Positions 17,723-55,819 of a DNA stretch of 64,000 nt are shown piece after piece; within the stretch, counting starts at the first letter, position 1; each line of letters begins with the position of its first letter. Origin of the DNA: Dehalococcoidia bacterium. GTDB lineage: Bacteria; Chloroflexota; Dehalococcoidia; Bin125. The stretch covers positions 1,092,782-1,156,781 of the forward strand of contig OZ241962.1 in NCBI GenBank assembly GCA_965203995.1, given 5' to 3'. A program made the translations under genes and the position numbers. The notes under the pieces are model-generated. The model was not told where the DNA came from. It saw only the letters and a program-made list of their open reading frames with translations, and made no database searches.

Positions 17723-18892
17723 CTACTCGTCGACTCCGCTGCCGGCCTCGCGCAACGCCTCCAGTAGCGCCGCGCCAAGCGAACCGGTGATCTCGGGATC
17801 CTCTTCGCTCTGGCCGACCTTCTCCGGTTCCTCTGTCTCGGCCTCGCTCAACGAGGGCGCCTCGGTGGTCTCCTCCTGCGGCGGAGGCAGCTTGGTCAGC
17901 ACTTCGTCGCTGCTCGGCGCAAAGACGCCGTCACGCGCTCGGCGCACGCGCGGATCGTCGTCCTCAATCAGACTCATCTCGAGCAGCTTGTCGATCAGCT
18001 CGATGTAGGACTTCTCTCCGAAGTTGCGCAACGTCAGCAACTCGTCGTCGCTCTTCTCGAGAATCTGACCGACCAGCATCAACCCGCTGCGCTTCAGGCA
18101 GTTGTGGGCCCGCACCGAGAGTTGCAGTTCCTCGATCGGCATGTCGTACTGTTCGGCAGTCAAACCAACCCGCGCGTGCGCAGGAAGTTGGCGCGTCGTG
18201 ATCGGCTGACCCATCGTCTCGAACAGTTCCAGCTCAGTACGCAGTGAGCGCGCCGCCGCCTGCACCGCATCGACGCCGGATATCGTGCCGTCCGTCCAGA
18301 CCTCAATCAGTAGCTGTTCGTACTCGCTGCCGCGTCCGCCCGAGGCGGGCAGCACCTCGTACGACACCTTGCGCACCGGCGTGAACACCGCGTCCAGCGG
18401 AATCAGGCCGAGCAGGTGCTCGCCGTTCTTGTTCTGTTCAGAGGGTCGGAAGCCGAAGCCGGTCTCAACGTCCATGACGACGTCGAGTCGGCCTTCTTCG
18501 CTGTCCAGCGTGGCCAGGTAGTGGTCGGGATTGACGATCTTGTAGTCGCCGGGCACTTCGATGTCGCCGGCGGTGATCTGGCCGGCGCCGGTCACATTGA
18601 GATGCATCTCGGCCGGGCGGTCGGCGATCGCGTGGATCCGGATCTCGCGCAGGTTGAGCAGGAACTCGGTCGTGTCTTCCTTCATCTGCGGGATCGTCGA
18701 GAACTCGTGCTGAACCTGATCGATCCGTACGGAAGTGATCGCCGCGCCGCGGATACCGCTGAGCAGCACCCGCCGTAGCGCGTTGCCCTCGGTGTGCGCG
18801 AACCCTCGCGTGAGCGGCTCGACTGCGATCCGGACGTAGTCGTCGCGTTCTTCCTCAATCGAGAGCTTGGGAGTTTCGGTAGCCAGGATCAC
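17723..18892 (-). CDS. rpoA: DNA-directed RNA polymerase alpha subunit (with ~60-aa acidic C-terminal extension)
   Basis: GNALRRVLLSGIRGAAITSVRIDQVQHEFSTIPQ (NTD); alpha-CTD HNCLKRSG...; 389 aa. Confidence 0.9.
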   Translation of the reverse strand: MILATETPKLSIEEERDDYVRIAVEPLTRGFAHTEGNALRRVLLSGIRGAAITSVRIDQVQHEFSTIPQMKEDTTEFLLNLREIRIHAIADRPAEMHLNVTGAGQITAGDIEVPGDYKIVNPDHYLATLDSEEGRLDVVMDVETGFGFRPSEQNKNGEHLLGLIPLDAVFTPVRKVSYEVLPASGGRGSEYEQLLIEVWTDGTISGVDAVQAAARSLRTELELFETMGQPITTRQLPAHARVGLTAEQYDMPIEELQLSVRAHNCLKRSGLMLVGQILEKSDDELLTLRNFGEKSYIELIDKLLEMSLIEDDDPRVRRARDGVFAPSSDEVLTKLPPPQEETTEAPSLSEAETEEPEKVGQSEEDPEITGSLGAALLEALREAGSGVDE

Positions 18893-22374: not shown

Positions 22375-24123
22375 CTAGCGAATAAACCCTTCGTAATTGC
22401 GCATCAGCAGTTGCGCTTCAATCTGTCGCATCGTGTCCAGCGCGACCCCGACAACGATCAGCAGGCCGGTCGAAGAGATCGTCAAGGCCGTGGAGTCGGG
22501 AATGAACTCCGTCGCCAGGAACGGAACCACCGCGACAAAGCCCAGGAACAGCGCTCCCGCCCAGGTGATCCGAGCCAGCACGCGGTTGATGTAGTCCTGC
22601 GTGGGACGGCCCGGCCGGATGCCGGGAATGAACCCGCCCTGCTTCTGCAGATTCTCGGCCAGGTTCTGTTGCTGGAAGGTGACGAACGTGTAGAAGAACG
22701 TGAACCCGACGACCAGCACGAACGAGAGCGCCCAATACGCCGGTCGTCCCGGCGAGAGATTCAACTGGACCCAATCGGCCACCCGAATGATCCAGCCTGG
22801 ACGCTCGCCCAGCGTCTGACCCTCGGCGATGTCCGGCGTCAACGGATTGTCGGCCGGATCCTCATGCGTCTTGATCTCCGAGACCGCGATGAAGTTGCCC
22901 TCGCGATCGGAGAGCCGGATCGGATCCTCGGAGATCTCGTTGGCATCGATACGCCAGGCATAGAGCGTCTCCTGCGTGGCCTGGATCGTCGTCGTCTCGA
23001 CCTGGGTCAGGACGTTGGCGTCGGAGTTGGAGTTGATCCGATCCAGTACGTCCTGGAACGTGTCCTCTTCCTTGTCCCACTCGACGATGCCTTCATTGAC
23101 CGTGAACTCGCCGGAGTCGTCCAGCTCGGGCAGCAGCGTGGCCAGCGGCTGCTCCACGTCATCACGAGTGAACGGCAGCTCGACTGCGACCTGGGTCTGC
23201 GCTTCCTCGCCCGCCGCTCCGGTCACCCAGCCGGCCAGGACGGAAGGGAAAATGATGATCGAGAAAGCGAAGATCAACGGGATCATGCCGGCCGAGTTCA
23301 CCCGCAGCGGGATGTAGGATTGACCGCTCTGGCGGTACATCCTCCCTCCGCGGAACACCGATCGGGCGTATTGAACGGGAATCCTCCGCTGCGCCTCCTG
23401 GAAGAACACGATCAGGGCAACGAGGGCGATCGCAATCGCGATCACCACGGCGATGCCCGACCAACCAATGTCGGACAGCCGCACCGAGTTGAACAGCGTG
23501 GGGAAGCTGGCCACGATCCCGGCGAAGATGATCAGCGAGATGCCGTTGCCGACGCCTTTCTCCGTGATCAGTTCGCCCAGCCAGATCAGGAACATGGTGC
23601 CGGCTGTCATCGTCATCAGCGCCGACAGCGTGGGCAGCCACTCTTCGGCGCCGAAGCCAATCCCGGTGATCGCCCGGGCATTCTCGAGCAGCAGCAACTG
23701 ACCGTAACCCTGCACCACCGACATCGGCACTGCCAGCCAGTAGGTGTAGAGCTGAATCCGGTTACGGCCCGACTCGCCTTCCTGCGCCAGCGCTTGCAGG
23801 CGCGGCACGACCGGTTGCATCAGGTTCATCACGATCGACGCCGTGATGTAGGGATAGACGCCCAGGGCGACGATCGACAGGTTGTCCAACCCGCCGCCCG
23901 AGAACAGATTGAGGAACCCAAGCACCGGATTGTTGTCCAGCGCGTTCTCGAGCTGGGTCTTGTTGATGTCGGGAATCGGGACATGCGCGACCAGCCGGAA
24001 CACGACCAGCATGGCCAGGGTGAACGCGACTTTCTGGCGAACGTCCGGCTGACGCCAGGCGTCGACCAGGGCCTGCAGCAGCTTAGGCCTCGTCGGCCCC
24101 GCCGCTGTCTGGGCTCTCTGCAT
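22375..24123 (-). CDS. secY: Preprotein translocase SecY (582 aa, with ~140-aa insertion in an external loop)
   Basis: LSIVALGVYPYITASIVMNL, GNGISLIIFAGIV and GGFIPGIRPGRPT hallmark segments. Insert lies between ...FPSVLAGWVTG and RPAYWALSFVLVV. Confidence 0.9.
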   Translation of the reverse strand: MQRAQTAAGPTRPKLLQALVDAWRQPDVRQKVAFTLAMLVVFRLVAHVPIPDINKTQLENALDNNPVLGFLNLFSGGGLDNLSIVALGVYPYITASIVMNLMQPVVPRLQALAQEGESGRNRIQLYTYWLAVPMSVVQGYGQLLLLENARAITGIGFGAEEWLPTLSALMTMTAGTMFLIWLGELITEKGVGNGISLIIFAGIVASFPTLFNSVRLSDIGWSGIAVVIAIAIALVALIVFFQEAQRRIPVQYARSVFRGGRMYRQSGQSYIPLRVNSAGMIPLIFAFSIIIFPSVLAGWVTGAAGEEAQTQVAVELPFTRDDVEQPLATLLPELDDSGEFTVNEGIVEWDKEEDTFQDVLDRINSNSDANVLTQVETTTIQATQETLYAWRIDANEISEDPIRLSDREGNFIAVSEIKTHEDPADNPLTPDIAEGQTLGERPGWIIRVADWVQLNLSPGRPAYWALSFVLVVGFTFFYTFVTFQQQNLAENLQKQGGFIPGIRPGRPTQDYINRVLARITWAGALFLGFVAVVPFLATEFIPDSTALTISSTGLLIVVGVALDTMRQIEAQLLMRNYEGFIR

Positions 24124-24574
24124 TGATCACCTCGACGCTGCCGCCAGCGGCAACGATCTTTGCTTCGGCTGCCGACGAGATCCGTTCCACGCGCACCTGC
24201 AGGGCAGTGGAGATCTCACCGCCCGCGAGCACTTTGAATCGCTGCGACGCACGCCGCAGCAGTCCGGCTGCGACCAGCGCCTCGCTATCGACCGTATCAC
24301 CATCGGCGAAGCGTCGATCCAGATCGACGACGTTGATCGGTTGCGCTTCCACGCGGAAGGGGGCCTTGAAGCCCTTGCGCCGCGGCAGCGTGCGCATCAT
24401 CGACATCGCCCCGCCCTCGAACACCGAGTTGTAGTCGCGGCCCGCCCGTGATCGCTGTCCCTTGAGACCGCGACCCGAGTACGTGCCCTTGCCCGAGGCG
24501 TTGCCCCGGCCGACCCGCTTGCGCTTCTTCCGCGAACCGGGCGCCGGCCGCAGATCGTTGAGTCGCAGCACCAT
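24083..24574 (-). CDS. rplO: 50S ribosomal protein L15
   Basis: LNDLRPAPGSRKKRKRVGRGNASGKG. Confidence 0.95.
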   Translation of the reverse strand: MVLRLNDLRPAPGSRKKRKRVGRGNASGKGTYSGRGLKGQRSRAGRDYNSVFEGGAMSMMRTLPRRKGFKAPFRVEAQPINVVDLDRRFADGDTVDSEALVAAGLLRRASQRFKVLAGGEISTALQVRVERISSAAEAKIVAAGGSVEVINAESPDSGGADEA

Positions 24575-24768: not shown

Positions 24769-25380
24769 CTACTCGCTCGTTCCGGCGGCAGCGAGTTCGG
24801 CCTCTGGCGCCTCGGATTGCTCAACAGGCTCGGCCGCCGGCTCGTCGGGCACGCGGCCGGCCAGCCGCAGACGCTCGCGCCTTACCTGGACCGGATCGCG
24901 CAGTTGCTCGAGGGCACGCAGCGTGGCCTGAACCACGTTGACCACGTTGTTCGAACCCAGCGACTTGGACAGCACGTTGCGCAGTCCCGCCGCCTCCAGG
25001 ACGGCACGTACACCGCCGCCGGCGATCACACCGGTCCCGGGCGCCGCCGGCTTGAGCAGCACCTGCGACGCGCAGAATCGCGCAGTGATCGGATGGGGAA
25101 TCGTGCCATTGCGAATCGGCACGCTGACCATCTCACGCCTGGCAATCGTCGAACCCTTGCGAATCGCGTCCGGGACCTCGTTCGCCCGGCCAATCCCGAT
25201 GCCCACGCGCCCGGCGCCGTCGCCGACCACGACGACCGAGGTGAATGAGAACCGTCGACCGCCCTTGACCACCTTGGCCACGCGCGAGACCGCGACGACC
25301 TTTTCGATAATGTCGTCCTGCGGCTCGTCGCGGTCACGGCGGCGGCCTCTGCCGCGTCCGCCGTCTCGCTGTTGCACCAT
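24769..25380 (-). CDS. rpsE: 30S ribosomal protein S5
   Basis: [29 protein letters not shown]. Confidence 0.95.
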
Positions 25381-31485: not shown

Positions 31486-31785
31486 TCAGACCCCCTCGAA
31501 CAGGCGGATCTCGTAGCCGTCTGCTAACGTCACGATCGCCTTTTTCCAGTCGCGCTCCCGACCCGGACGGCCGCGACCGATCCGCTTCGTATCGCCGCGC
31601 ACGTTGATCACATTCACCTTGGTCACCTGCACCGAGAACGCAATCTCGATGGCCTCGCGAATCTGTAGCTTGTTCGCCCGAGGATCGACCTCGAACACGT
31701 ACTTGCCATGCTCCGCCAACTCGGTCGATTTCTCAGTGATGATCGGTTCGCGCAGCACCGCGTAGGGATGAATGTCCTTAGGCAT
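31486..31785 (-). CDS. rplW: 50S ribosomal protein L23
   Basis: [17 protein letters not shown]. Confidence 0.9.
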
Positions 31786-32434
31786 CGCCAGCCTCCTCCG
31801 CCCCGTCCGATTCGACTGCCCACATTGCCTCGCAGCGGCGCACCGCAGCCTCGGTCATGACCAACTGGTCGTGCGTGAGGATCAGATAACTGCTCAACGT
31901 CTGCGCCGGCATCGCCTGAATGTTGGGCAGATTCTTCGTACCCCGCAGCAACGCCTCGTCTACACCGTCCGACACAACCAGCGCCGTGCGCTCGATGCCC
32001 AGTGTTCGGCAGAGGCTCGCCATCGCCGACGTCTTCGCCTCGAACTCGACGTCCGGAGCGGCCACGATCACGCCGCCCTCGGCCGCCCGTTGCGAGAGCA
32101 AGGAGCGAATCGCCAGCCGTCTCATGCGCTTGGGCAGGCGCTGCCGGTACGAGCGCGGATGCGGCCCGTGCGCCACGGCTCCACCGATCCGGGTCGGCGA
32201 CGATGGCGTGCCCATCCGAGCCCGACCGCCGCCCTTCTGACGCCCGGTCTTCTTCGACGCCTGGCGAATGTCTGACCGATTCATCGTCGAACTGGTGCCC
32301 TGGCGCTCGTTCGCGCGTTGCGCGGTCACCGCCTGATGCACCACCGCGAGGTTTGGCTCGATGCCAAAGACCGAATCGTCCGCGTCGATCTCGCCGGCGG
32401 CCTGACCCTGCGCGTCAATCAGCGGGAGTTTCAT
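31778..32434 (-). CDS. rplD: 50S ribosomal protein L4
   Basis: VHQAVTAQRANERQGTSSTMNRSDIRQASKKTGRQKGGGRAR. Confidence 0.95.
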   Translation of the reverse strand: MKLPLIDAQGQAAGEIDADDSVFGIEPNLAVVHQAVTAQRANERQGTSSTMNRSDIRQASKKTGRQKGGGRARMGTPSSPTRIGGAVAHGPHPRSYRQRLPKRMRRLAIRSLLSQRAAEGGVIVAAPDVEFEAKTSAMASLCRTLGIERTALVVSDGVDEALLRGTKNLPNIQAMPAQTLSSYLILTHDQLVMTEAAVRRCEAMWAVESDGAEEAGDA

Positions 32435-42736: not shown

Positions 42737-43824
42737 GCGAGCCCCTCCCTGATCACCGCCTCCGCCTCTTCGTACTCGGGTCCGATCTCCACCACATCGG
42801 CCTGAATCGACTCAATTGCTCGTTCCGGATCCTTCAAGCCGTGCCCGGTGATGGTGCAGACCACGCGCCAGCCGGCCAACGACCCGTCGCCGTGCCGCGA
42901 GAGCAGTCCGGCTACCGAGGCCGCCGAGGCCGGCTCACAGAACACGCCTTCCTCGCCGGCCAACGTGCGATAGGCATGCAGAATCTCGTCATCGCCGACG
43001 GCGATGATTGCTCCCCGCGACTCATCGCGCGCCGCCACGGCGCCATCCCATGACGCCGGCGATCCAATCCGGATCGCGGTCGCAATCGTCTCCGGCTGTT
43101 CGACCGGCCGGCCCAGCACCAGTGGTGCTGCGCCCGCTGCTTGCACGCCCAGCATCCGCGGATGCCTCGACGATCGTTCGGCCTGGAAGTACTCCCGATA
43201 TCCACGCCAGTACGCCGTGATGTTGCCCGCGTTGCCCACCGGGATGCAGTGCAGATCCGGTGCGTCGCCGAGTTCATCGACGATCTCCATCGCGGCCGTC
43301 TTCTGACCGTCGATCCGGTACGGATTCACCGAATTGACCAACGCCACCGGCAGGTGTTCGGTCAGTCTCTGGGCCGAACGCAGCGCATCGTCGAAGTTGC
43401 CGTCGACAGCCAGGATCTTCGCCCCGTGTGCTGCCGCTTGGGCCAGCTTGCCCTTGGCGATCCGCCCTTCCGGAACCAGCACGAACGCTCGTAATCCGCA
43501 GCGGGCCGCGTACGCCGCCGCCGACGCGCTCGTGTTTCCCGTTGACGCACAGAGCACCGCCGTCGCCCCCTGTTCGATCGCCTTCGCCACCGCCACCGCC
43601 ATGCCTCGATCCTTGAACGACCCGGTCGGGTTGCACATTTCCAGTTTCAGCCAGACCTCGTCCGCTCCGGTCGCCCGTTCCAGGCTCCTCGCTCGCACCA
43701 GGGGCGTGCTGCCTTCGCCCAGCGACACGCGGGGCGTCGATGCATCGATCGGCAGCCAATCGGCGTAGCGCTCCAGCACGCCGCCGCTGGCCCACGGCTC
43801 CGACCTGACCGCGCTGCTAGTCAT
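42733..43824 (-). CDS. thrC: Threonine synthase
   Basis: PLP-binding [21 protein letters not shown]. 363 aa. Confidence 0.9.
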
Positions 43825-44863
43825 CGCCGCGCACCCGCAGGTAGGACTTCAACTCTCGGATCTCCTGCTCCAGCTCTTCGATCTGCCGCCGCCGGATCTG
43901 CTCCTGCAACGACACGAATCGTTCCTGCTCCTGGGCTGTCAGACTCGACACGCCGTCGATCCGATCGCCCAGCGACGCCACGGCGCGCTCGCGCCGCGCA
44001 TCGCGCGCGCGAAGCTGCTCCCCCATTCGTTCGATGTTGCCAATTCGCTCCTCGATCGCCTCAAAACCACGCTGAACCGACGAGACAACTGCTTTGGACG
44101 CGTCCAGAGCCTGCAGCGATTCCTCCACACGGCCGCGCAGCGCCTCCACGTTCGTGCTCAGATCCTCCCACTGCTCGGCCGTCTCCTGCACGCGCCGCAA
44201 GCTCTGATACGACAGCTCCAGCCGCTCGGTCAGACTGCCCACCTGACGCTCAAGCGAATCTACTCGCGTCTCCAGCGCGCTGCCGTCGCTCGCCGACCGC
44301 CGGATCCCGTCCGCGTTCGCCGAGATCCGCGCGCCCAGCGCTACCTGGCTATTCTCGATCTGCGACATACGGTGCGCGGTCTCGCCGCTCTCCGCGTTGA
44401 CTCGGCGGATCGACTCGTCGAACACTTCCAGCCGCTCGCGCAAATCGTTCAGCGCCTTTTCGCTCGCCTGCAGCCGCCGCAGCGAATCATTACCCGACTC
44501 ACGCACCCCATCGAGTTCCTGCCGCGCCTGGCGGACCGACGCGTCCACCAGCTCCCGATGCTCGGCCAGATCGGCGTTGAACCGGTTCATCCGCTCGCGC
44601 AGGTTTTGTAGCTCGTCGAGCTGGCGCGCGGCCGCGCCGATCTCAGCGGACAGCGACAGCGCCTTCCCCTCCAGCTCGCGCATGCGCTGATCCAGCGCGT
44701 CAATCTCCCGCTCCTCGCGCACCCGCGACTGCGCCAACTCGGCCGTTCTGCTCTGCAGGCCGGTCAGCGACTCCTCGAAGCGCAGCCAGCGCCCTTCACT
44801 ACCCTCGCCCGGGTTACTGGTCGTCACGGCCGTCCTCGATCCGCAGCCGCACGCCCAATTCAA
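43817..44863 (-). CDS. Coiled-coil protein of unknown function (inserted between hom and thrC)
   Basis: 348 aa, almost entirely heptad-like E/R/L/Q-rich sequence (e.g. [26 protein letters not shown]). Overlaps thrC start by 8 nt and hom end by up to 50 nt. Confidence 0.6.
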
Positions 44864-46121
44864 TCAGGCTGCTCGAGTGGGCCAGCTTGTCGAGCACCCG
44901 GTCGATCGCCCCATCGGTACAGGCATGAGTCGTCACGATCAGATCCGCCGACCGGCTGCGCTCGGGGTGCGGAGTCTGCAACACCGAAGCGATGCTCACG
45001 CTCTCGGCGGCGAACACCGCTCCCAGCTCCGCCAGCACCCCGGCCCGGTCGGGAACCTCCAGCCGCAGATATGCGGGTACGCAGATGTCTTCGAGCGAAG
45101 CCAGCAGCGGCGACGACTCCAGTCGTCGCTGTTGGCGCGGCTGCTGGCTTGACGCCATGCGGCCGGCGACGTCCAGGATGTCCGCCACCACCGCGCTCGA
45201 TGTCGCGCCCGACCCCGCGCCCGCTCCTTCCAGCATCACCGAACCAATCAGATCGCCCGACACCGACACCGCGTTCAGTACGCCCTCCACGCCGGCCATC
45301 GGATCCTCGAGCGGCACCAGCGTCGGATGCACGCGTAGGTCAAGCCCGGTCGGCGTACGCCGAGCTGTCGCCAGCATTCGGATCGCATAGCCCAGATCGC
45401 GCGCGTGGACGAAGTCCCGCGCCGCCAGCGAACGAATACCCTCGCGGTACACGTCGTCCGGCGCGACCTCCGCGTGAAACGCCAACGATGCCAGGATCGC
45501 CAGCTTGTACGCCGCATCGATCCCGTCCACGTCGTTGGTCGGATCGGCCTCGGCGTAGCCGAGTCGCTGGGCATCACCCAGGGCGTCGGCATAACTCAGC
45601 CCGTCGCGAGACATCGCCGTGATCATGTAGTTCGTGGTGCCGTTGATGATCGCCCGAACTGACGACACCTCATTCGCCTGCAGTTCCCGCTGCAACACTC
45701 CGATGATCGGGATCCCGCCGCCCACACTCGCCTCGTAGCGCAGTTCCACCCCCCGCGACTCGGCCAGCGACAACAGCGCCGACCCTCGCTTGGCCATCAC
45801 TTCCTTGTTGGCGGTCACTACCGACTTGCCAGCCGACAGCGCCGCCTCGATACACTCTGAGGCTGGCGTCTCCCCGCCCATGAGTTCCACGATGATGTCG
45901 AGATCGTCGCGCGTCGCCACCTCCGCAGGGTCGGTAGACAGCGACAGCCCATTCGCCGCTAACGCCGACCGCGACGACACGTCTCGCACCGCCGCCGCGC
46001 GGACTTCCAACCCGCGGCCGCAGCGTTGTTCGTAAGCCTGCGCATTCGCTTGCAACGCCTCTAGGACGCCGCCTCCGACGACCCCCAGTCCCAGCAAGCC
46101 AATGCCCAGCGACTCACCCAT
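44814..46121 (-). CDS. hom: Homoserine dehydrogenase
   Basis: [23 protein letters not shown]-binding region. C-terminal ACT domain. 435 aa. Confidence 0.9.
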   Translation of the reverse strand: MGESLGIGLLGLGVVGGGVLEALQANAQAYEQRCGRGLEVRAAAVRDVSSRSALAANGLSLSTDPAEVATRDDLDIIVELMGGETPASECIEAALSAGKSVVTANKEVMAKRGSALLSLAESRGVELRYEASVGGGIPIIGVLQRELQANEVSSVRAIINGTTNYMITAMSRDGLSYADALGDAQRLGYAEADPTNDVDGIDAAYKLAILASLAFHAEVAPDDVYREGIRSLAARDFVHARDLGYAIRMLATARRTPTGLDLRVHPTLVPLEDPMAGVEGVLNAVSVSGDLIGSVMLEGAGAGSGATSSAVVADILDVAGRMASSQQPRQQRRLESSPLLASLEDICVPAYLRLEVPDRAGVLAELGAVFAAESVSIASVLQTPHPERSRSADLIVTTHACTDGAIDRVLDKLAHSSSLIELGVRLRIEDGRDDQ

Positions 46122-46897
46122 CAGGCGCCGGATTCCTCGTCCGCCGGCGGGTCCGCCGTTTCCTGCGGCGCGTCCATCGCTTCAGCAGCTTCCGTTGTTT
46201 CGGTTGGCTCCTCGGTCGAAGCCACGCTGGGCGCCGGCTCCGCCGCTTCCTGCGGTGCGTCCGTCGCTTCAGCAGCTTCCGTTGTTTCGGTTGGCTCCTC
46301 GGTCGAAGCCACGCTGGGCGCCGGTTCCGCCGCTTCCTGCGGCGCGTCCGTCGTTTCAGCGGCTTGCGTTGTTTCGGTTGGCTCTGCAGCTGGGACGACC
46401 GTGGCCGACTCCAATATCTCCGCCACCGCAGCCGCAGGCGCCTCGGACGCGGCAGACTCAGCCTCGGCGCCGTCAGGCGCCGCCTCGGACGGCGGCGCGT
46501 CGTCCAACTCCGCTCGCATCGCTCGCTGCGCCATCCGCGTCACCATCCGGAACCGCGAGGTTTGGCGCATGTGCTCGGCCGTGTAGGGCAACAGCGCCAC
46601 TTGCCGGGCCCGCTTGATCTCGCGCGCAATCTTGCGCTGATCCTTGGCCGTCAATCCCGTCTTGCGTCGCGGCTCGATCCGGCCCCGATCTGAGATCAAC
46701 TTGCGCAGCCTGTCCACGTCCTTGTAGTCGATGGTCGCCACCTCTTGCGGGGTGAACACCGGCGCACGCCGCCGCCGACCACGACGCCGCGTACGCTCGA
46801 TCATCTGCGGCAGCCGCTCGCCCGCTTCGGGCGCAGGCCGGATCACCGGCGCCGGGGACGGCGCCGCCTCAATGTTCGGTTCCGGTTCAGTCGTCAT
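46121..46897 (-). CDS. rpsR: 30S ribosomal protein S18 with long tandem-repeat C-terminal tail
   Basis: Core [59 protein letters not shown]. Followed by 3x [29 protein letters not shown]. An alternative start at MIERTRRRG (46804) is possible. Confidence 0.9.
46150..46395. repeat. 3x 87-bp near-perfect tandem repeat inside rpsR coding sequence
   Basis: Unit ccgccgcttcctgcggtgcgtccgtcgcttcagcagcttccgttgtttcggttggctcctcggtcgaagccacgctgggcgccgg[c/t]tc, repeated from ~46152. Confidence 0.9.
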
Positions 46898-46950
46898 TCG
46901 TACATCTCCTGAGAACAGTCTCCAGCGCTCATCTCAGAGCGCAGCATCGC

Positions 46951-47388
46951 CTACTCAAACGGCAAATCCCCGGCATCGGGTCCGCCGCCAGGGTCTCCAG
47001 GTCCTTCATCCCAGTTACCGCCGCCACTGTCGCCGAAATCTCCGCCCCCACCACCTCGGCCGCCCAAGAATTGAATGTCGTTGGCGACGACCTCGGTGGT
47101 GTAGCGATTGTTTCCTTCGCGGTCCTGCCACTGCCTCGTCTGCAGGCGACCTTCCACGAACACGGGGCGGCCCTTGCTCAGGTACTGTCCACAGAGCTCA
47201 GCAAGTCGCTGCCAAGCGACAATCGTGACCCACTCGGTTACCTCCTGGCGCTGCCCCTCCCGATCGGTGTAGGAGCGACTGCACGCGATCCGGAAGTTGG
47301 CGACCGCCGCTCCGTTGGCGGTAAAGCGCAACTCCGGGTCGGCGCCCAGGTTGCCGATCAACATCACCTTGTTCAGTCCAGCCATCAA
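46951..47388 (-). CDS. ssb: Single-stranded DNA-binding protein
   Basis: [22 protein letters not shown]. Gly-rich linker. Acidic tip ...DLPFE. Confidence 0.95.
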
Positions 47389-47416
47389 TGCACCCCCGCG
47401 CTCATGCGTCCGCAGG

Positions 47417-47719
47417 CTAACGGTCGCGACGGACGATCAGGTGACGCAGCACCTGCTCGTCGATCAACAGCGACTGTTCCAGCTCATCACGGCGCGAATC
47501 CGGCCCGCCGTCGTAATGCGCCAGCAGGTAATGACCCTCGTACGACTGCTTGATCGGATACGCCAGCCGGCGCCGGCCCCAATCGATCACCTCAGTCACG
47601 TCGTTGCCGTACTCGGTCAGCGTGCCGCGCAGATGCGCCATCCGCTCTTCCACCTGCTCACCCGCGACATCGGGGTGCAGCACCACCATGATCTCATACT
47701 CAGTGTCGCCCTGCGCCAT
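47417..47719 (-). CDS. rpsF: 30S ribosomal protein S6
   Basis: [18 protein letters not shown] ... [14 protein letters not shown] extends to 47767. Confidence 0.9.
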
Positions 47720-47763
47720 GTCTCGCTCCTCCGGTTGCGTTCGGTTGTCTGGTTCGTCTCGGC

Positions 47764-49026
47764 TCAACTGCCAATCCCGGGAATCGGGAAGCCCGACGCC
47801 AGTTCGCGCACCTCTGCGCCCACGCGCCGGTGCTCGTCCGCGTCGTCAATGTGATCCAGCACGCGGCCAATCAGTCCTGCCACCTGCGACATCTCGTCCT
47901 CGCCCATCCCCCGAGTCGTCAGCGCCGGCGTGCCGATCCTGATGCCCGACGTCACCGTGGGACGCCGCGTGTCGTAGGGAATCGTGTTCTTGTTCACCGT
48001 GATCCCCGACGCGTCCAGCGCCGCCTCCGCCGCCTTGCCGGTCAGCCCCTTGACGCCCACGTCCAGCAACAGCAGGTGATTGTCGGTCCCGCCCGAGACC
48101 ACCCGCCAGCCCTCTGATTGCAACCCAGCCGCGAGCGCGCGAGCGTTCGCCACGATCTGCGCGGCATAAGTCGCGAACTCCGGTGTCGACGCCTCCTTCA
48201 GCGCGACCGCCTTCGCCGCAATCGTGTGCATGTGCGGACCGCCCGAGGTGCCCGGGAAGATCGCGCGATCGATCGGCCGCGCCATCTCGTCGTTGGTCAG
48301 GATCAACGCCGAGCGGGGCCCGCGCAGGGTCTTGTGCGTCGTCGTCGTCACCACCGGCGCATACGGCACTGGCGACGGATGCACGCCGCCCGCGACCAGG
48401 CCCGCAATATGCGCCATGTCGACCATCAGCACCGATTCCACTGACACTGCAATCTCGGCCGCGAGAGCGAAATCGAAGATCCGCGGATAGGCCGTCGCGC
48501 CGACCACGATCACTTTGGGTCGGTGCTCGCGGGCCAACTCGGCCATGGCGTCGTAATCGATCTGTTCCGTCTCCGGATCCACCCCGTAGGACACGAACTC
48601 GAACCAGCGGCCGGAAATGTTGACCGGCAGCCCGTGCGTCAAGTGGCCGCCGTGATTCAGCTCCAGACCCATCGCGGTGTCGCCAGGCGAGAGCAGCGCA
48701 AAGTAGGCCGCAATGTTCGCCTGCGTGCCCGAATGCGCCTGCACATTCGCGTGGTCTGCGTCGAACAGCGCCTTGGCCCGTTCGATCGCCAACTCCTCCA
48801 CCACGTCCACGAACTCACAGCCGCCGTAGTAACGCTTGCCCGGATAGCCCTCGGCGTACTTGTTGGTCAGCACAGACCCCATCGCCGCCAGGACCGGCTC
48901 GGATGGATAATTCTCCGACGCGATTAGCTCCAGGCCGTCCCGCTGCCGCCCGGCCTCCCGCTCGATTGCCGAGGCGATCTCCGCATCGGCCGCATCCAGA
49001 GCAGCCCCTGCCAACGTCAGCGCCAT
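47764..49026 (-). CDS. glyA: Serine hydroxymethyltransferase
   Basis: [40 protein letters not shown] ... [12 protein letters not shown] (PLP Lys). Confidence 0.95.
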
Positions 49027-49141
49027 CTCTCACCTATTCGCGTTCCGGAGACCCGCTCGACGCGGGCCGCCGCCGAGTCACACGCCCGACAGCACACGAA
49101 CCACGGTCGATCTCAGCTTACACGCGCTCAAGACGCCTCAG

Positions 49142-50248
49142 TCAACCAGGCAACCCCCGCCCGGCTTCCCGCCGCGTCCAGGCCGCATCGATCCCCGCCA
49201 GCATGCCACCGCTAACCAACGAGTGCCCACCCATCATCACCGTCGAATCCTCCAACATCGACACCAGTCCCCGCATCCGCTGATCTGTGATTTGCTCCGA
49301 GCAGCCGAGATCGGCCCAGAACCGGTCGCAGCGCGAGATGTCCCAGCCGAGGTGAGACTGGAACGGCCGCGTGTCCCAGATCATTGCGTCGCCCATCCCC
49401 TCCAGCGCCAGAAGAAATCCGTCCCGACCACCCCACTCGAACAGCTCGCCCAAAAGGGACCGCGCCCGGCGCCGACGGGTTCGCATGCCCCGTTCCTCCG
49501 ACAGCACCCTCACGCGACAAGAGGTGTCGCGATCCACGACCGCCCAGTCGGATCCGCTGACCCGGCCCGCAATCATCAATTCTCCGTCACGGCGGGTCAT
49601 CACGTCGAAGACCTTCAACGCTTGCTGTACCGACTCATCTAGCTCTGGCCAGTTGGATAGCGCAGCGGCGGTGGCAGCGCCAAGCTCCATCGATGCGACG
49701 CTCAATGCAGCCTTCAGCACCGTCAGGTCTGCCGGCGTATCCACGTCCAGCAGTGACCGCGCCGATCGGGCGAACGACTGAACCCTCACCTCCGTACGGT
49801 CCCGGACGAGTAAGGCAAAGCGGTTGTCGACCGGCTCACCGGCCAGGCTCTTCAAAAGCCCCCCATCCGGTACACCAATCCAGTCACATGAAAACATGCG
49901 ATTCGCCGTCGCATGTCCCGATTCGATCGTCCCGCGAACCGCCGACCAGTCTTCGGCGGTCATCGCTGGCATCCCCGAACCTGCGTAACAGACTGGTCCG
50001 GCCGTATCACCCGACGCCGTCGCCACGATGTCCCCGATCGACTGGTCCGCACGCGTCGCTTCGACCGCTAGGTCGGCAATCGATTCGCTGGCAAACACCC
50101 GCACGCGGTCGAACCCGGCTTCACGCGCGCGCGCCGCCGTATCTTGCAACACCGCACTCCGCACCTCATTGACCATCCGCACCGGAACACAGTCTTCCGC
50201 AAGTGGGCGATGGCACAGCCAGAACTCCGAGGGTCGCGTCCCCGACAT
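49142..50248 (-). CDS. Hypothetical protein with possible MobA/CofC-like nucleotidyltransferase N-domain plus uncharacterised C-domain
   Basis: DVDTPADLTVLKAAL resembles the [DN]V[DN]TPxxL motif of MobA-like NTP transferases. The ~150-aa C-terminal part has no recognisable motif. Start placed at MSGTRPSEF just after the comF stop. Confidence 0.4.
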   Translation of the reverse strand: MSGTRPSEFWLCHRPLAEDCVPVRMVNEVRSAVLQDTAARAREAGFDRVRVFASESIADLAVEATRADQSIGDIVATASGDTAGPVCYAGSGMPAMTAEDWSAVRGTIESGHATANRMFSCDWIGVPDGGLLKSLAGEPVDNRFALLVRDRTEVRVQSFARSARSLLDVDTPADLTVLKAALSVASMELGAATAAALSNWPELDESVQQALKVFDVMTRRDGELMIAGRVSGSDWAVVDRDTSCRVRVLSEERGMRTRRRRARSLLGELFEWGGRDGFLLALEGMGDAMIWDTRPFQSHLGWDISRCDRFWADLGCSEQITDQRMRGLVSMLEDSTVMMGGHSLVSGGMLAGIDAAWTRREAGRGLPG

Positions 50249-53026: not shown

Positions 53027-53636
53027 GTCCCTCCGTCTCCCAGCGCTCGAGGATGGCCCGCGCATAACGCCAGCTGTGCGCATTGTTGGCCGCGGCTTCG
53101 ACGAAGGCGTCATGCAGCCAATCGGTGCCGTAACGCGCCTCTGCCGCCTTGAGCTCCTCCGCCAGAATCGGCGGCATTGGTGTCCCAAACGCACTCTGCC
53201 AGATCTCGGGCGCCGTGCCGTAAACCGCCTCCCGCCCATGTACCCGAGCAGAGTCGGGAGGCATTGGAGCCGACGCCATCGCCCTGCGGCCGTCCGCGTC
53301 GTTCAACGCCAGCCACTCAACCCATCGGCCTGCCGACTGCGCTCGACCAATCAACAACGACCCACGCCGGATCGCGGCTGATAGTCCCTGCTCGAACGCC
53401 TCGTTGACCTCCCGATCCACGCACATGCCGGCAAGCGCCTCAATCAGCGGCCGCTCTTCTCGCAAACCGGCCGTCGACACCCGCCTCGGAAACCGGCGTT
53501 GTCGACCAATCGCCTCAACAGCGAACAGCGTCACAATCAGCTCCGCAGGGTCACTCATCGCAGGCGCCAGGTCCCGTAACAGCGCCTGCGGCAGCGGCGT
53601 CACCGGAGCGCCCGAGGGAAATCCGTCGAAATCCAT
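52947..53636 (-). CDS. DnaD-domain replication initiation/helicase-loading accessory protein (DnaD/DnaB2-like)
   Basis: C-terminal DnaD-type motif LAEELKAAEARYGTDWLHDAFVEAAANNAHSWRYARAILERW. ATG overlaps the dnaB stop (ATGA). Confidence 0.6.
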   Translation of the reverse strand: MDFDGFPSGAPVTPLPQALLRDLAPAMSDPAELIVTLFAVEAIGRQRRFPRRVSTAGLREERPLIEALAGMCVDREVNEAFEQGLSAAIRRGSLLIGRAQSAGRWVEWLALNDADGRRAMASAPMPPDSARVHGREAVYGTAPEIWQSAFGTPMPPILAEELKAAEARYGTDWLHDAFVEAAANNAHSWRYARAILERWETEGRDGGDATAGTAAGGLESSRYRHLFRD

Positions 53637-55123
53637 CAGAACTCGCCCACTCCCGGTTCAGGCTGCGCATAGAAGTCCTCAAACTTGGCGATCGTCGAGA
53701 CGAAACGCACATCCACACGACCCACTGCGCCATGCCGATGCTTGGCCACGAGCAACTGCGCGACTTCATGGTCGCCCATTCGCGAGGCGTCGCTGACCAG
53801 GTCGTCCTGGTAATCGTCGCGGTCGTACATGTCCTCTCGGTAGATGAAAATCACTACGTCGGCGTCCTGCTCAATCGAGCCGCTTTCACGCAGGTCCGAC
53901 AGTTGCGGCACCGGCGGATGCCGACGCTCCACCGCCCTCGACAGCTGCGAGAGGGCCAGGATCGGCACCTGTAGCTCGCGGGCAATCTCTTTCAACGTGC
54001 GGGAGATCAGAGAGATCTCGCTGACCCGGTTCGTGTCCGACTGCGCTCGTGCCCAACCGTGTACGAGCTGAATGTGATCAACGATGATCAGCCCCAGACC
54101 TGCCCGCTCGTCGCCCTGTCTGTGCGCCCGCTCCTGGAGACGCGTGTGCAGATTCCGCGACTTCGCCCGGATCTCCGCCAGCGACTGACCCGCCGTGTCG
54201 TCGATGTAGATCTCCGCCCGGCTCAGCAGCCCGATCGCCTGCGAAATCCTGGCGCCCTGGTCTTCCGTATGCCGACCCAACCGAAGCCGCGAGTGCTCGA
54301 CGCCCGATTCCGCCGAGACCAGACGCGCCGCCACCTGCTCGGCCGACATCTCCAGGGAGAAAATCGCCACCGGCAGCGTCTGACCGATCGCCGCGTTGCG
54401 CGCCACCGTGAGCGCCAGCGCCGACTTGCCGACCGAGGGTCGCGCCGCCAGCACGACCAGGTCCGAGGCGTGCATCCCTTCGTTGAGCAGCGTGTCCAGA
54501 TCGGTGAAGCCCGTCCGCGTCGGTCCGTCGACGCCGAGTCCCGACTCGCCCTCTTCGCCCAACACGTCGCTGAGCAGATCCTCCAGGACACGGAAGTCCT
54601 GCCGCCGATCCGCGCCGCGAATGCCGTACAGAATCTCGACTGCCCGAGTCAGCGATTCACCCACATTCGGGTCCGCCTGGTAGGCCAGTTCGCCAATCTC
54701 GCCCGCCGCGCGGATCATGTCCCGATACGTCGCCGACCGCTGCACCAGCCGCGCGTAGTGTTCGGCACCGACCGTGGCCGGCAGTTCATAGACAAGCTGG
54801 TTCAGATACGCCTGGCCGCCCGCCTCCTGCAGGCGGCCCTGGTTCGATAGATCGGCCGCCACCGTGATCTGGTCGATCGCCTCATAACGCTCAAACACCG
54901 CCACGACCGCCGCGAAGATCGCTCGGTGACGCGGATCCATGAAGTCGTTCGGTTCCAGCATCCCCGCCAGGCGCTCGTACACGCCCGGTTCGGCCAGGAT
55001 CGCGCCCAACACCGACTCCTCCGCCGCCTGGTCGTGCGGCACTCCACGAGGCGCCGACCGCCCCCGCCCATTCGGCCCACCCGCTTGCGCCTGCTCGTCA
55101 TATGTCGGATCAGAGGAGACCAT
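53636..55123 (-). CDS. dnaB: Replicative DNA helicase DnaB
   Basis: ESVLGAILAEP N-domain. Walker A ARPSVGKSALALTVA. RecA-like H2-H4 motifs. ORF extends to 55168. Confidence 0.93.
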   Translation of the reverse strand: MVSSDPTYDEQAQAGGPNGRGRSAPRGVPHDQAAEESVLGAILAEPGVYERLAGMLEPNDFMDPRHRAIFAAVVAVFERYEAIDQITVAADLSNQGRLQEAGGQAYLNQLVYELPATVGAEHYARLVQRSATYRDMIRAAGEIGELAYQADPNVGESLTRAVEILYGIRGADRRQDFRVLEDLLSDVLGEEGESGLGVDGPTRTGFTDLDTLLNEGMHASDLVVLAARPSVGKSALALTVARNAAIGQTLPVAIFSLEMSAEQVAARLVSAESGVEHSRLRLGRHTEDQGARISQAIGLLSRAEIYIDDTAGQSLAEIRAKSRNLHTRLQERAHRQGDERAGLGLIIVDHIQLVHGWARAQSDTNRVSEISLISRTLKEIARELQVPILALSQLSRAVERRHPPVPQLSDLRESGSIEQDADVVIFIYREDMYDRDDYQDDLVSDASRMGDHEVAQLLVAKHRHGAVGRVDVRFVSTIAKFEDFYAQPEPGVGEF

Positions 55124-55228
55124 CAACGGCCTCCCCACGATCAACATCCCGTGAGAACCCGGACACACAACTGGCGGACGGCCAGCGAATCGGAATCTGT
55201 CTCAGGACTGCAGGACAGAAACGCGCGC

Positions 55229-55819
55229 CTACTCTTCGGCGTCCTCGACGTCCACTGCTGCTTCGCCAGCATCCTCCTCCTCGGCAGCCTCTAACTCCGC
55301 CGCCTCGGCTTCCTCCACCTCCGCCACCACTTCGTCGAAGCTCAGCTCCGCGCTTTCTGCGTCCGGCTCGACGATCACTCGTACCTCGGCAGACACATTG
55401 CGAGTCAACCGGACTCGCACATCCTCGGCGCCCAGCGATCGCAGCGATTGCGCCAGCAACACCTGACGGTGTTCGATCACCGCCTCCGGCACGCTCGACG
55501 CTGCGATCTCCGTCAGGCGTTCGGCGATGTCGCGGGCCGTGATCGAGCCGAACAACCGGCCCTGCTCCCCGACTCGCGCCTGGAAGGTCAACTCCTGCCC
55601 CGCAATCGCCAGCGCGACCGGACTCGCGTCGCCGTCCAGCTTCTCCTGTCGGATCGCGTCGGCCTTCGCCAGCCGCTCCGCCCGGGACAGGTTGTTCTTC
55701 GTTGTGGGACCAGCCAGGCCCCGCGGCAGTAGGTAGTTGCGCGCGAACCCGTTCTTGACTTCCTTGACCTCGCCCACCAACGCAGTCCCTTCGACCTCTT
55801 CGAAAAACACGACCTTCAT
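55229..55819 (-). CDS. rplI: 50S ribosomal protein L9 (with ~40-aa acidic tail)
   Basis: MKVVFFEEVEGTALVGEVKEVKNGFARNYLLPRGLA. Confidence 0.93.
   Translation of the reverse strand: MKVVFFEEVEGTALVGEVKEVKNGFARNYLLPRGLAGPTTKNNLSRAERLAKADAIRQEKLDGDASPVALAIAGQELTFQARVGEQGRLFGSITARDIAERLTEIAASSVPEAVIEHRQVLLAQSLRSLGAEDVRVRLTRNVSAEVRVIVEPDAESAELSFDEVVAEVEEAEAAELEAAEEEDAGEAAVDVEDAEE

Follow-up and report, generated by a model that had tools for sequence, protein, structure and literature searches.

Ribosomal protein bS18 with a basic C-terminal extension and a predicted disordered acidic tail in a clade of Dehalococcoidia

Introduction

Ribosomal protein bS18 belongs to the core of the 30S platform; it is small, strongly conserved and very basic. 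We analyzed its gene, rpsR, in a stretch of 64,000 nucleotides from the genome of a Dehalococcoidia bacterium (contig OZ241962.1, positions 1,092,782 to 1,156,781; hereafter the window, in whose numbering all coordinates are given), where the predicted product has 258 amino acids (aa) and ends in a long acidic tail. Flexible acidic spacers leading to a conserved tip are familiar from other proteins, among them the bL12 hinge, the tails of the archaeal and eukaryotic P-stalk and the linker of SSB. The tips of SSB and of the P-stalk are motifs with a hydrophobic anchor (D-D-D-I-P-F and GFGLFD, respectively) that bind partner proteins.

On the 30S platform, bS18 binds as a heterodimer with bS6 (PMC10931766), and lineage-specific features of the two proteins shape the groove that holds the 3' end of 16S rRNA (PMC10931766; PMC7797042). 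In the Bacteroidia, a C-terminal helix of bS6, together with bS18 and bS21, sequesters the anti-Shine-Dalgarno sequence (PMC7797042). The bS6 protein of E. coli has an acidic C-terminus to which RimK adds glutamates (PMC10931766). As for repeats within S18 itself, the closest known case is the rps18 gene of grass chloroplasts, which encodes an N-terminal basic heptapeptide repeat, SKQPFRK, present in 6 or 7 copies between related species (PMC2695775; Weglohner & Subramanian 1991). No description of a C-terminal or acidic extension of S18 was found in the literature on Chloroflexi or on bacteria generally.

A bS18 protein with a two-part C-terminal extension

The rpsR gene of the window is a single uninterrupted open reading frame (ORF), and the same 258-aa gene call is present in an independent NCBI assembly. 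The gene and the parts of its product are as follows.

46121-46897, minus strand: rpsR, 258 aa plus the stop codon TGA at 46121-46123
46760-46897, minus strand: N-terminal extension, acidic and Pro-rich at aa 1-27, then very basic at aa 28-46 (net charge +8)
46589-46759, minus strand: S18 core fold, aa 47-103, placed from Pfam and solved bS18 chains
46505-46588, minus strand: clade-specific basic helix extension, aa 104-131, net charge +4
46124-46504, minus strand: acidic tail, predicted disordered, aa 132-258, net charge -34, no Lys or Arg
46460-46504, minus strand: conserved tail start, aa 132-146, clade consensus DDAPPSxPAEGGAE, from 116 tails and the alignment of 57 homologues described below
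46124-46138, minus strand: conserved C-terminal tip EESGA, aa 254-258, from conservation across 116 tails

The S18 domain (Pfam PF01084) is matched at aa 54-103 with an E value of 5.8e-22 (78 bits; cut-off 21). The NCBIfam equivalog for S18, TIGR00165, matches aa 41-107 (85.3 bits; cut-off 38.75). Solved bS18 chains give 66 matching PDB sequences, which cover aa 36-111 (best E 4.7e-19, to 3j9w_AR). By every test of family membership that can be made at the sequence level, the predicted product is a bS18, and it is the only copy of S18 within the window.

The solved bacterial bS18 chains all end within a few residues of an LPY motif, and none aligns past about aa 111. An alignment of 57 homologues is nearly invariant from aa 28 on, and the almost invariant region, aa 28-131, includes a 28-residue Arg-rich stretch past the normal end of S18. 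The N-terminus, which begins MTTE, is also kept in the homologues, with M1 and T3 invariant. A search of aa 100-146 against 1.84 billion cluster representatives returned only 2 matches, both to this S18 family, and scans of the extension against Pfam and NCBIfam matched no family and revealed no hidden domain. An AlphaFold2 model built on the 57-sequence alignment carries the helix through aa 132 with a predicted local distance difference test (pLDDT) score of 72-87. The tail of the same model has pLDDT of 40-50 and no DSSP elements, and the predicted template modeling score of the whole is 0.21. By model and composition, the tail falls among intrinsically disordered polyanionic tails, which are a functional class and not a homology family.

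The two parts of the protein are opposite in charge. Residues 1-131 have a net charge of +16 and, taken alone, an isoelectric point (pI) of 11.6; the remaining 127 aa sum to -34, and the protein as a whole has a pI of 4.65. An earlier note on this DNA, made from the sequence without database searches, had described the product as a bS18 of 258 aa with a translated acidic C-terminal tail, and the ORF, the Pfam and TIGR00165 matches and the charge of the C-terminal 127 aa bear this description out.

The explanation that we favor, and regard as probably correct, is that rpsR encodes a genuine bS18, within its operon, bearing a clade-specific C-terminal extension in two parts, and that this extension is predicted to form a disordered polyanionic tether on the 30S platform.

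A protein search identified 369 homologues. Lengths are given for the best 120 of these, which range from 143 to 273 aa and come from metagenome-assembled genomes (MAGs) of Dehalococcoidia; the 39 closest genomic loci all belong to MAGs of Dehalococcoidia or Chloroflexota. The best 120 share the near-invariant basic helix extension, and in nearly all of them an Ala/Glu/Pro tail comes after it. Short S18 proteins with a CxxC motif and without a tail occur in other Dehalococcoidia (loci L073, L075 and L076) and in Anaerolineae (L045 and L051). The S18 of the window lacks cysteines where the proteins of these same five loci have CxFC. The tailed clade would thus have a Cys-free form of S18 and its short-tailed relatives a form with cysteines, which may bind zinc. 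Two distant Dehalococcoidia loci (L037 and L039) have a frame that is open for about 195-226 codons 5' of the S18 core and rich in Ala, Pro and Thr. These frames may represent very long N-terminal extensions in some lineages, or may be over-extended ORFs.

Composition, length and selection in the tails of the clade

To describe the tails as a group we pooled 117 of them, comprising 9,044 residues, and counted residues by position at the tip in 116. Ala (29%), Glu (19%), Pro (16%) and Val (9%) dominate the pooled tails. Lys and Arg together make up 0.4% (0 or 1 per tail), there are no aromatic residues and no Cys, and the median net charge is -0.22 per residue. The start of the tail, DDAPPSxPAEGGA, is conserved across the clade. 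So is its end, EES[GD][AD], where 105 of the 116 tails have E at position -5, 109 have E at -4 and 84 have S at -3. The stretch that separates the two motifs is unalignable across species, and whole tails can be as short as a few residues or as long as 134 aa. The earlier note had correctly seen an S18 with an acidic repeat tail but missed both the basic helix extension and the conserved end motif.

Tandem arrays were detected by Tandem Repeats Finder (TRF) in 27 of 38 related tails, so that the repeat in the window is not an isolated oddity: for rpsR in this clade, long tails with in-frame repeats peculiar to each lineage are usual. The repeat units differ by lineage, and their periods, from 9 to 87, are without exception multiples of 3. 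In a sister species, S18 proteins of 227, 234, 241 and 248 aa correspond to 4-7 copies of PAETAPT (7 aa, 21 bp). Of these sister-species proteins, P0127 (234 aa) and P0133 (241 aa) are a single 7-aa repeat apart, and the longest contig given for each is 4,974,375 bp long. One assembly may contain both, as two alleles or copies, or strains may be mixed.

The GC content by codon position fails to pick out the reading frame in the tail, where Ala, Pro and Thr codons raise GC at the second position; the case for translation is therefore a comparative one. The conserved in-frame terminus, the multiple-of-3 repeat periods and the overlap of the gene with the start of hom, the gene that follows it, together show a tail that is evidently translated. 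Its selection was estimated in 14 closely related pairs, in which the ratio of nonsynonymous to synonymous substitution (dN/dS) is 0.15-0.87 for the tail (median about 0.25) and 0-0.09 for the core. Such values show what appears to be relaxed purifying selection, acting on composition.

The main rival to a functional tether is that the variable tail is tolerated, functionless low-complexity sequence, generated by slippage and codon bias in a genome of 67% GC at an exposed terminus, where selection would act only against harmful residues. We consider this unlikely, though far from negligible. In its favor, the tails vary widely in length and are unalignable between species, and repeat copy number varies among close relatives. 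The density of single-nucleotide polymorphisms (SNPs) between two strains of the species is the same in the tail as in neighbouring genes; the GC content at third codon positions is lower in the repeat units than in the core (0.71 versus 0.83); similar tails are found on other proteins of the window; and deeper relatives have neutral Ala/Pro tails. All of these are consistent with tolerance. However, tolerance does not readily explain why the tail is kept in essentially every member of the clade, why its DDAPPS..GGA start and EESGA tip are conserved around a variable spacer, or why Lys and Arg are nearly excluded from it when the rest of the protein is Arg-rich, and the median dN/dS is well below the value of about 1 that tolerance would predict.

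Several observations nevertheless weigh against a functional tether as we describe it. The sequence and length of the tail are so variable that much of it may have no specific function. The dN/dS values are confined to close pairs with alignable tails, and the conserved end motifs are counted in them. The case for disorder consists of composition and a prediction of low confidence. In the window itself the proximal motif of the tail reads EAAPDGAE, where the clade consensus is EPAEGGAE. Finally, in the deeper-branching loci L030-L035 the helix is present but is followed by an Ala/Pro-rich tail of almost no net charge, which makes strong acidity and the EESGA tip derived traits of a subclade and not universal ones.

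Possible roles of the helix and the tail

Under the explanation that we favor, aa 104-131 would form an Arg-rich helix continuing the last helix of S18 and would probably provide extra contacts with rRNA or protein on the 30S platform. Residues 132-258 would form a disordered polyanion of Ala, Glu, Pro, Thr and Val between the conserved start and tip. The middle of the tail acts as a spacer constrained in composition, whose length is altered by in-frame tandem duplication or deletion, either when replication slips or when recombination is unequal; the array of 2.7 copies of an 87-bp unit described below is this lineage's own case of such remodelling, fixed in the sampled strains. The most likely role of the tail would be that of an electrostatic mimic of nucleic acid, or self-chaperone, which before assembly neutralizes free bS18, a very basic protein. 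Once in the ribosome, the tail would make a flexible, negatively charged arm close to the bS6/bS18 platform and the mRNA-exit region, presenting the EESGA tip. The data show the anatomy of the protein, its conservation, its translation frame, the selection on it, the dynamics of its repeats and the prediction of disorder, whereas its position on the ribosome and its function are things that we infer.

A more far-reaching proposal is that long polyanionic arms have been added in this clade to bS18 and, in parallel, to bL9 and other ribosomal proteins. That of bS18, anchored to the 30S platform by a new rRNA-binding helix and ending in a conserved EESGA docking tip, would then be a built-in regulator of initiation or assembly, acting by mimicry of mRNA or the 16S 3' tail at the bS6/bS18 groove or by recruitment of a clade-specific factor, and repeat-driven changes of length would tune its reach. 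We think this improbable.

Still less probable, in our judgment, is a specific regulatory arm that would tune initiation either by docking a clade-specific factor at the EESGA tip or by competition of its polyanion with mRNA or with the 16S 3' tail at the platform, much as bS21, bS6 and bS18 sequester the anti-Shine-Dalgarno sequence in Bacteroidia. The conserved tip beyond a length-variable spacer and the invariant extra basic helix beside the platform proteins speak for such an arm, and there is a precedent for lineage-specific features of bS6 and bS18 that bind the 16S 3' end (PMC7797042). The tip is short, however, and lacks a hydrophobic anchor, and rpsR itself has a normal AGGAG Shine-Dalgarno sequence, so that use of such sequences is not obviously abolished.

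The 87-bp tandem repeat

The repeat that first drew attention to this gene lies in the distal part of the tail. Its units, and a weaker array in the proximal tail, are as follows.

46301-46387, minus strand: repeat unit 1, aa 171-199, differing from unit 2 at 7 of 87 nt and at 3 aa
46214-46300, minus strand: repeat unit 2, aa 200-228
46148-46213, minus strand: partial repeat unit 3, aa 229-250, differing from unit 2 at 4 of 66 nt
46440-46496, minus strand: weak imperfect 21-bp repeat (approximately AASEAEP) in the proximal tail, 2.7 copies, TRF score 61, 73% matches

TRF places the 87-bp (29-aa) array at 46148-46384, with 2.7 copies, 94% matches and a score of 418, the strongest repeat of the window. 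Among 50 composition-matched simulated windows the top TRF score was 80, and none contained an array with a period of at least 30. The 18-mer GAGCCAACCGAAACAACG occurs exactly 3 times, 87 bp apart, with no other occurrence in the window. Unit 3 matches the others over its first 66 nt only and then turns into the conserved terminus PPADEESGA. The earlier note had described three perfect 29-aa repeats. The repeat is indeed present, in frame, in the tail, but as two full units and one partial unit that are imperfect copies of each other, and the peptide quoted for all of them is an exact match to unit 2 only.

A cluster at 90% identity contains four proteins from four different contigs, all of 258 aa and with the same architecture, which differ mutually by 1-3 substitutions, each within the tail. 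For one of the four, from a second strain (GCA_022825855.1), the DNA stays collinear with that of the window for 4,777 bp, in which there are 55 SNPs but no indel. Variation in copy number between strains had been predicted, but none was seen within the species among the four alleles sampled or between the two indel-free strains; variable-number behavior of the kind expected of a contingency locus is instead found in the sister species, for its 21-bp unit. Recent expansion had also been proposed. The repeat units have diverged by about 8% and the two strains by about 1.2%, and the duplication is therefore older than the strain split. Metagenome contigs were scanned with the repeat 18-mer for further alleles and gave 32 single matches with no tandem array, all of which are therefore chance matches; an exact look-up of the protein, also in search of alleles, found nothing on record.

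That the array marks a recently expanding, strain-variable contingency locus, or is an artefact of assembly or annotation (a collapsed or expanded repeat, or a fused ORF), has next to no likelihood, for although the units are 92-94% identical and the 21-bp unit does vary in copy number in the sister species, the four alleles differ only by point substitutions, the second strain is free of indels over 4.8 kb, the units are more diverged than the strains, and the frame is open to the conserved terminus in all relatives. An assembly artefact, or a stop or frameshift between the S18 core and the repeats, either of which the earlier note had thought conceivable, is ruled out by the uninterrupted ORF, the four alleles of equal length and the collinear second strain. 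The 87-bp array is an ordinary by-product of the evolution of a low-complexity tail, stable in the sampled strains.

Operon context of rpsR

The genes and signals surrounding rpsR are as follows.

46906-46910, minus strand: Shine-Dalgarno-like AGGAG, 8 nt 5' of the rpsR ATG, read from the sequence
44814-46121, minus strand: hom, homoserine dehydrogenase, whose ATG overlaps the rpsR stop codon (TGATG)
46951-47388, minus strand: ssb, 5' of rpsR in the operon, Pfam SSB match with E 6.1e-40
47417-47719, minus strand: rpsF, encoding bS6, the partner of bS18, Pfam S6 match, with an open frame that reaches up to 47767

The rpsF, ssb and rpsR genes are adjacent on the minus strand, in the rpsF-(ssb/priB)-rpsR operon organization described previously (PMC10931766). 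The gene order glyA-rpsF-ssb-rpsR-hom, followed by an ORF for a coiled-coil protein (43817-44863), is kept in all 39 of the 39 related loci. In a sister strain, rpsF is called as a gene of 100 aa. The bS6 protein of the window ends in ...LIVRRDR and is without an acidic tail.

The TGATG overlap of rpsR and hom suggests translational coupling of the two genes. Such coupling of an amino-acid biosynthesis gene to a ribosomal-protein operon is unusual. A scan of positions 44000-50000 against Rfam, with E values up to 1, detected no family, including no S6:S18 autoregulatory leader. The stop codon of glyA abuts or overlaps the open frame of rpsF (47720-47767), leaving very little leader sequence. 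An ORF antisense to rpsR (46102-46617, plus strand) was set aside because it lacks independent support; whether it is open in relatives was not checked.

Acidic tails on other proteins of the window

Acidic C-terminal ends were also found on the following proteins.

55229-55819, minus strand: bL9, in which the L9_N and L9_C domains end at aa 151 and are followed by a 45-aa acidic tail
55272-55325, minus strand: 24-bp tandem repeat in the bL9 tail, detected by TRF
17723-18892, minus strand: RpoA (rpoA), with an acidic Ala/Pro/Glu-rich tail of about 70 aa past the Pfam domains
24769-25380, minus strand: uS5, with an acidic C-terminal tail of about 33 aa
28171-28515, minus strand: uS17, with an acidic C-terminal tail of about 39 aa
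17240-17641, minus strand: bL17, with a shorter acidic end
24083-24574, minus strand: uL15, with a shorter acidic end
31778-32434, minus strand: uL4, with a shorter acidic end

Those on RpoA and on the proteins of the ribosomal-protein cluster (uS5, uS17, bL17, uL15 and uL4) are rich in Ala, Pro and Glu and lie past the Pfam domains. These tails on ribosomal and transcription proteins suggest a genome-wide or clade-wide tendency. A typical bL9 has about 150 aa; across the clade, 120 homologues of bL9 range from 166 to 207 aa. The bL9 tail begins with a conserved EPDADSxDLSFDEVxAE, followed by a variable Ala/Glu/Asp stretch without Lys. Lengths have a standard deviation of 20 aa in bS18 against 5 aa in bL9, and bS18 is the extreme case, by far the most length-variable of the tailed proteins.

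The bL9 gene, rplI, was also considered as a source of the bS18 tail, from an ancestrally adjacent position. This origin was rejected: a BLASTP comparison of aa 104-258 with the bL9 of the window gives E = 21, and rplI does not follow rpsR but lies 9 kb away, beside dnaB (53636-55168).

Elsewhere in the window, the interval 1855-2057, between ORFs at 97-1845 and 2097-2954, contains a 68-bp unit in 1.9 copies and three copies of a 21-nt palindrome, CCCTCTCCC-NN-AGGGAGAGGG, which occurs nowhere else in the window and for which 0 copies are expected by chance. It looks like an intergenic element of the repetitive extragenic palindromic (REP) or terminator type.

Significance and comparison with known systems

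The larger finding, beyond the repeat, is a clade-wide helix and polyanionic tail on a core ribosomal protein. In the tailed clade bS18 is acidic overall and three times its usual size. Should the tail prove functional, this would be a clear instance, in bacteria, of a ribosomal protein that has gained a disordered extension in the style of eukaryotes, and the clade would offer a natural series of spacer lengths with which such tails could be tested. If the tail is merely tolerated low-complexity sequence, the finding is an ordinary one. In either event rpsR serves as a phylogenetic and completeness marker, and a variable, repeat-prone tail affects gene calling, clustering and strain typing in uncultured Dehalococcoidia.

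Among platform proteins, the phylum-specific C-terminal helix of a bS6/bS18-type protein in Bacteroidia is the counterpart of the helix extension described here, and the Bacteroidia helix contacts rRNA. However, it belongs to a different protein with a different sequence and has no polyanionic tail, and we see no evidence for occlusion of the anti-Shine-Dalgarno sequence in Dehalococcoidia. The E. coli bS6 tail resembles the bS18 tail in being a negative, flexible C-terminus on the bS6:bS18 heterodimer, but it is short, is carried by the partner protein and is partly post-translational, whereas the Dehalococcoidia tail is encoded by the gene, is 127 aa long and is carried by bS18.

Like SSB, bL12 and the P-stalk proteins, the bS18 of this clade combines a flexible spacer, rich in Ala, Pro and Glu and varying in length, with a short conserved motif at its end. 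Unlike the tips of SSB and the P-stalk, EES[GD][AD] has no hydrophobic anchor of the GFGLFD or IPF type, and it sits on another protein at another site of the ribosome; the product of the neighbouring ssb gene ends in ...DLPFE, the classic version of the acidic tip. Mitochondrial and plant S18 proteins (bS18m and bS18c; PDB 9evs, 6xyw and 4v61) are also much longer than 75-90 aa, with chains of 237-261 aa. Their extra length is mostly N-terminal, however, since the S18 core aligns at residues 128-229, and they have no sequence similarity to the Dehalococcoidia helix or tail.

Grass chloroplast rps18 and the rpsR gene described here both encode an S18 made longer by tandem repeats in frame, with copy numbers that vary from one related species to another. 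The window protein contains no N-terminal SKQPFRK repeats. The chloroplast repeat is N-terminal, basic and 7 aa long, whereas that of the Dehalococcoidia protein is C-terminal, acidic and 29 aa long, and lies inside a much longer, predicted disordered tail that follows an extra conserved helix.

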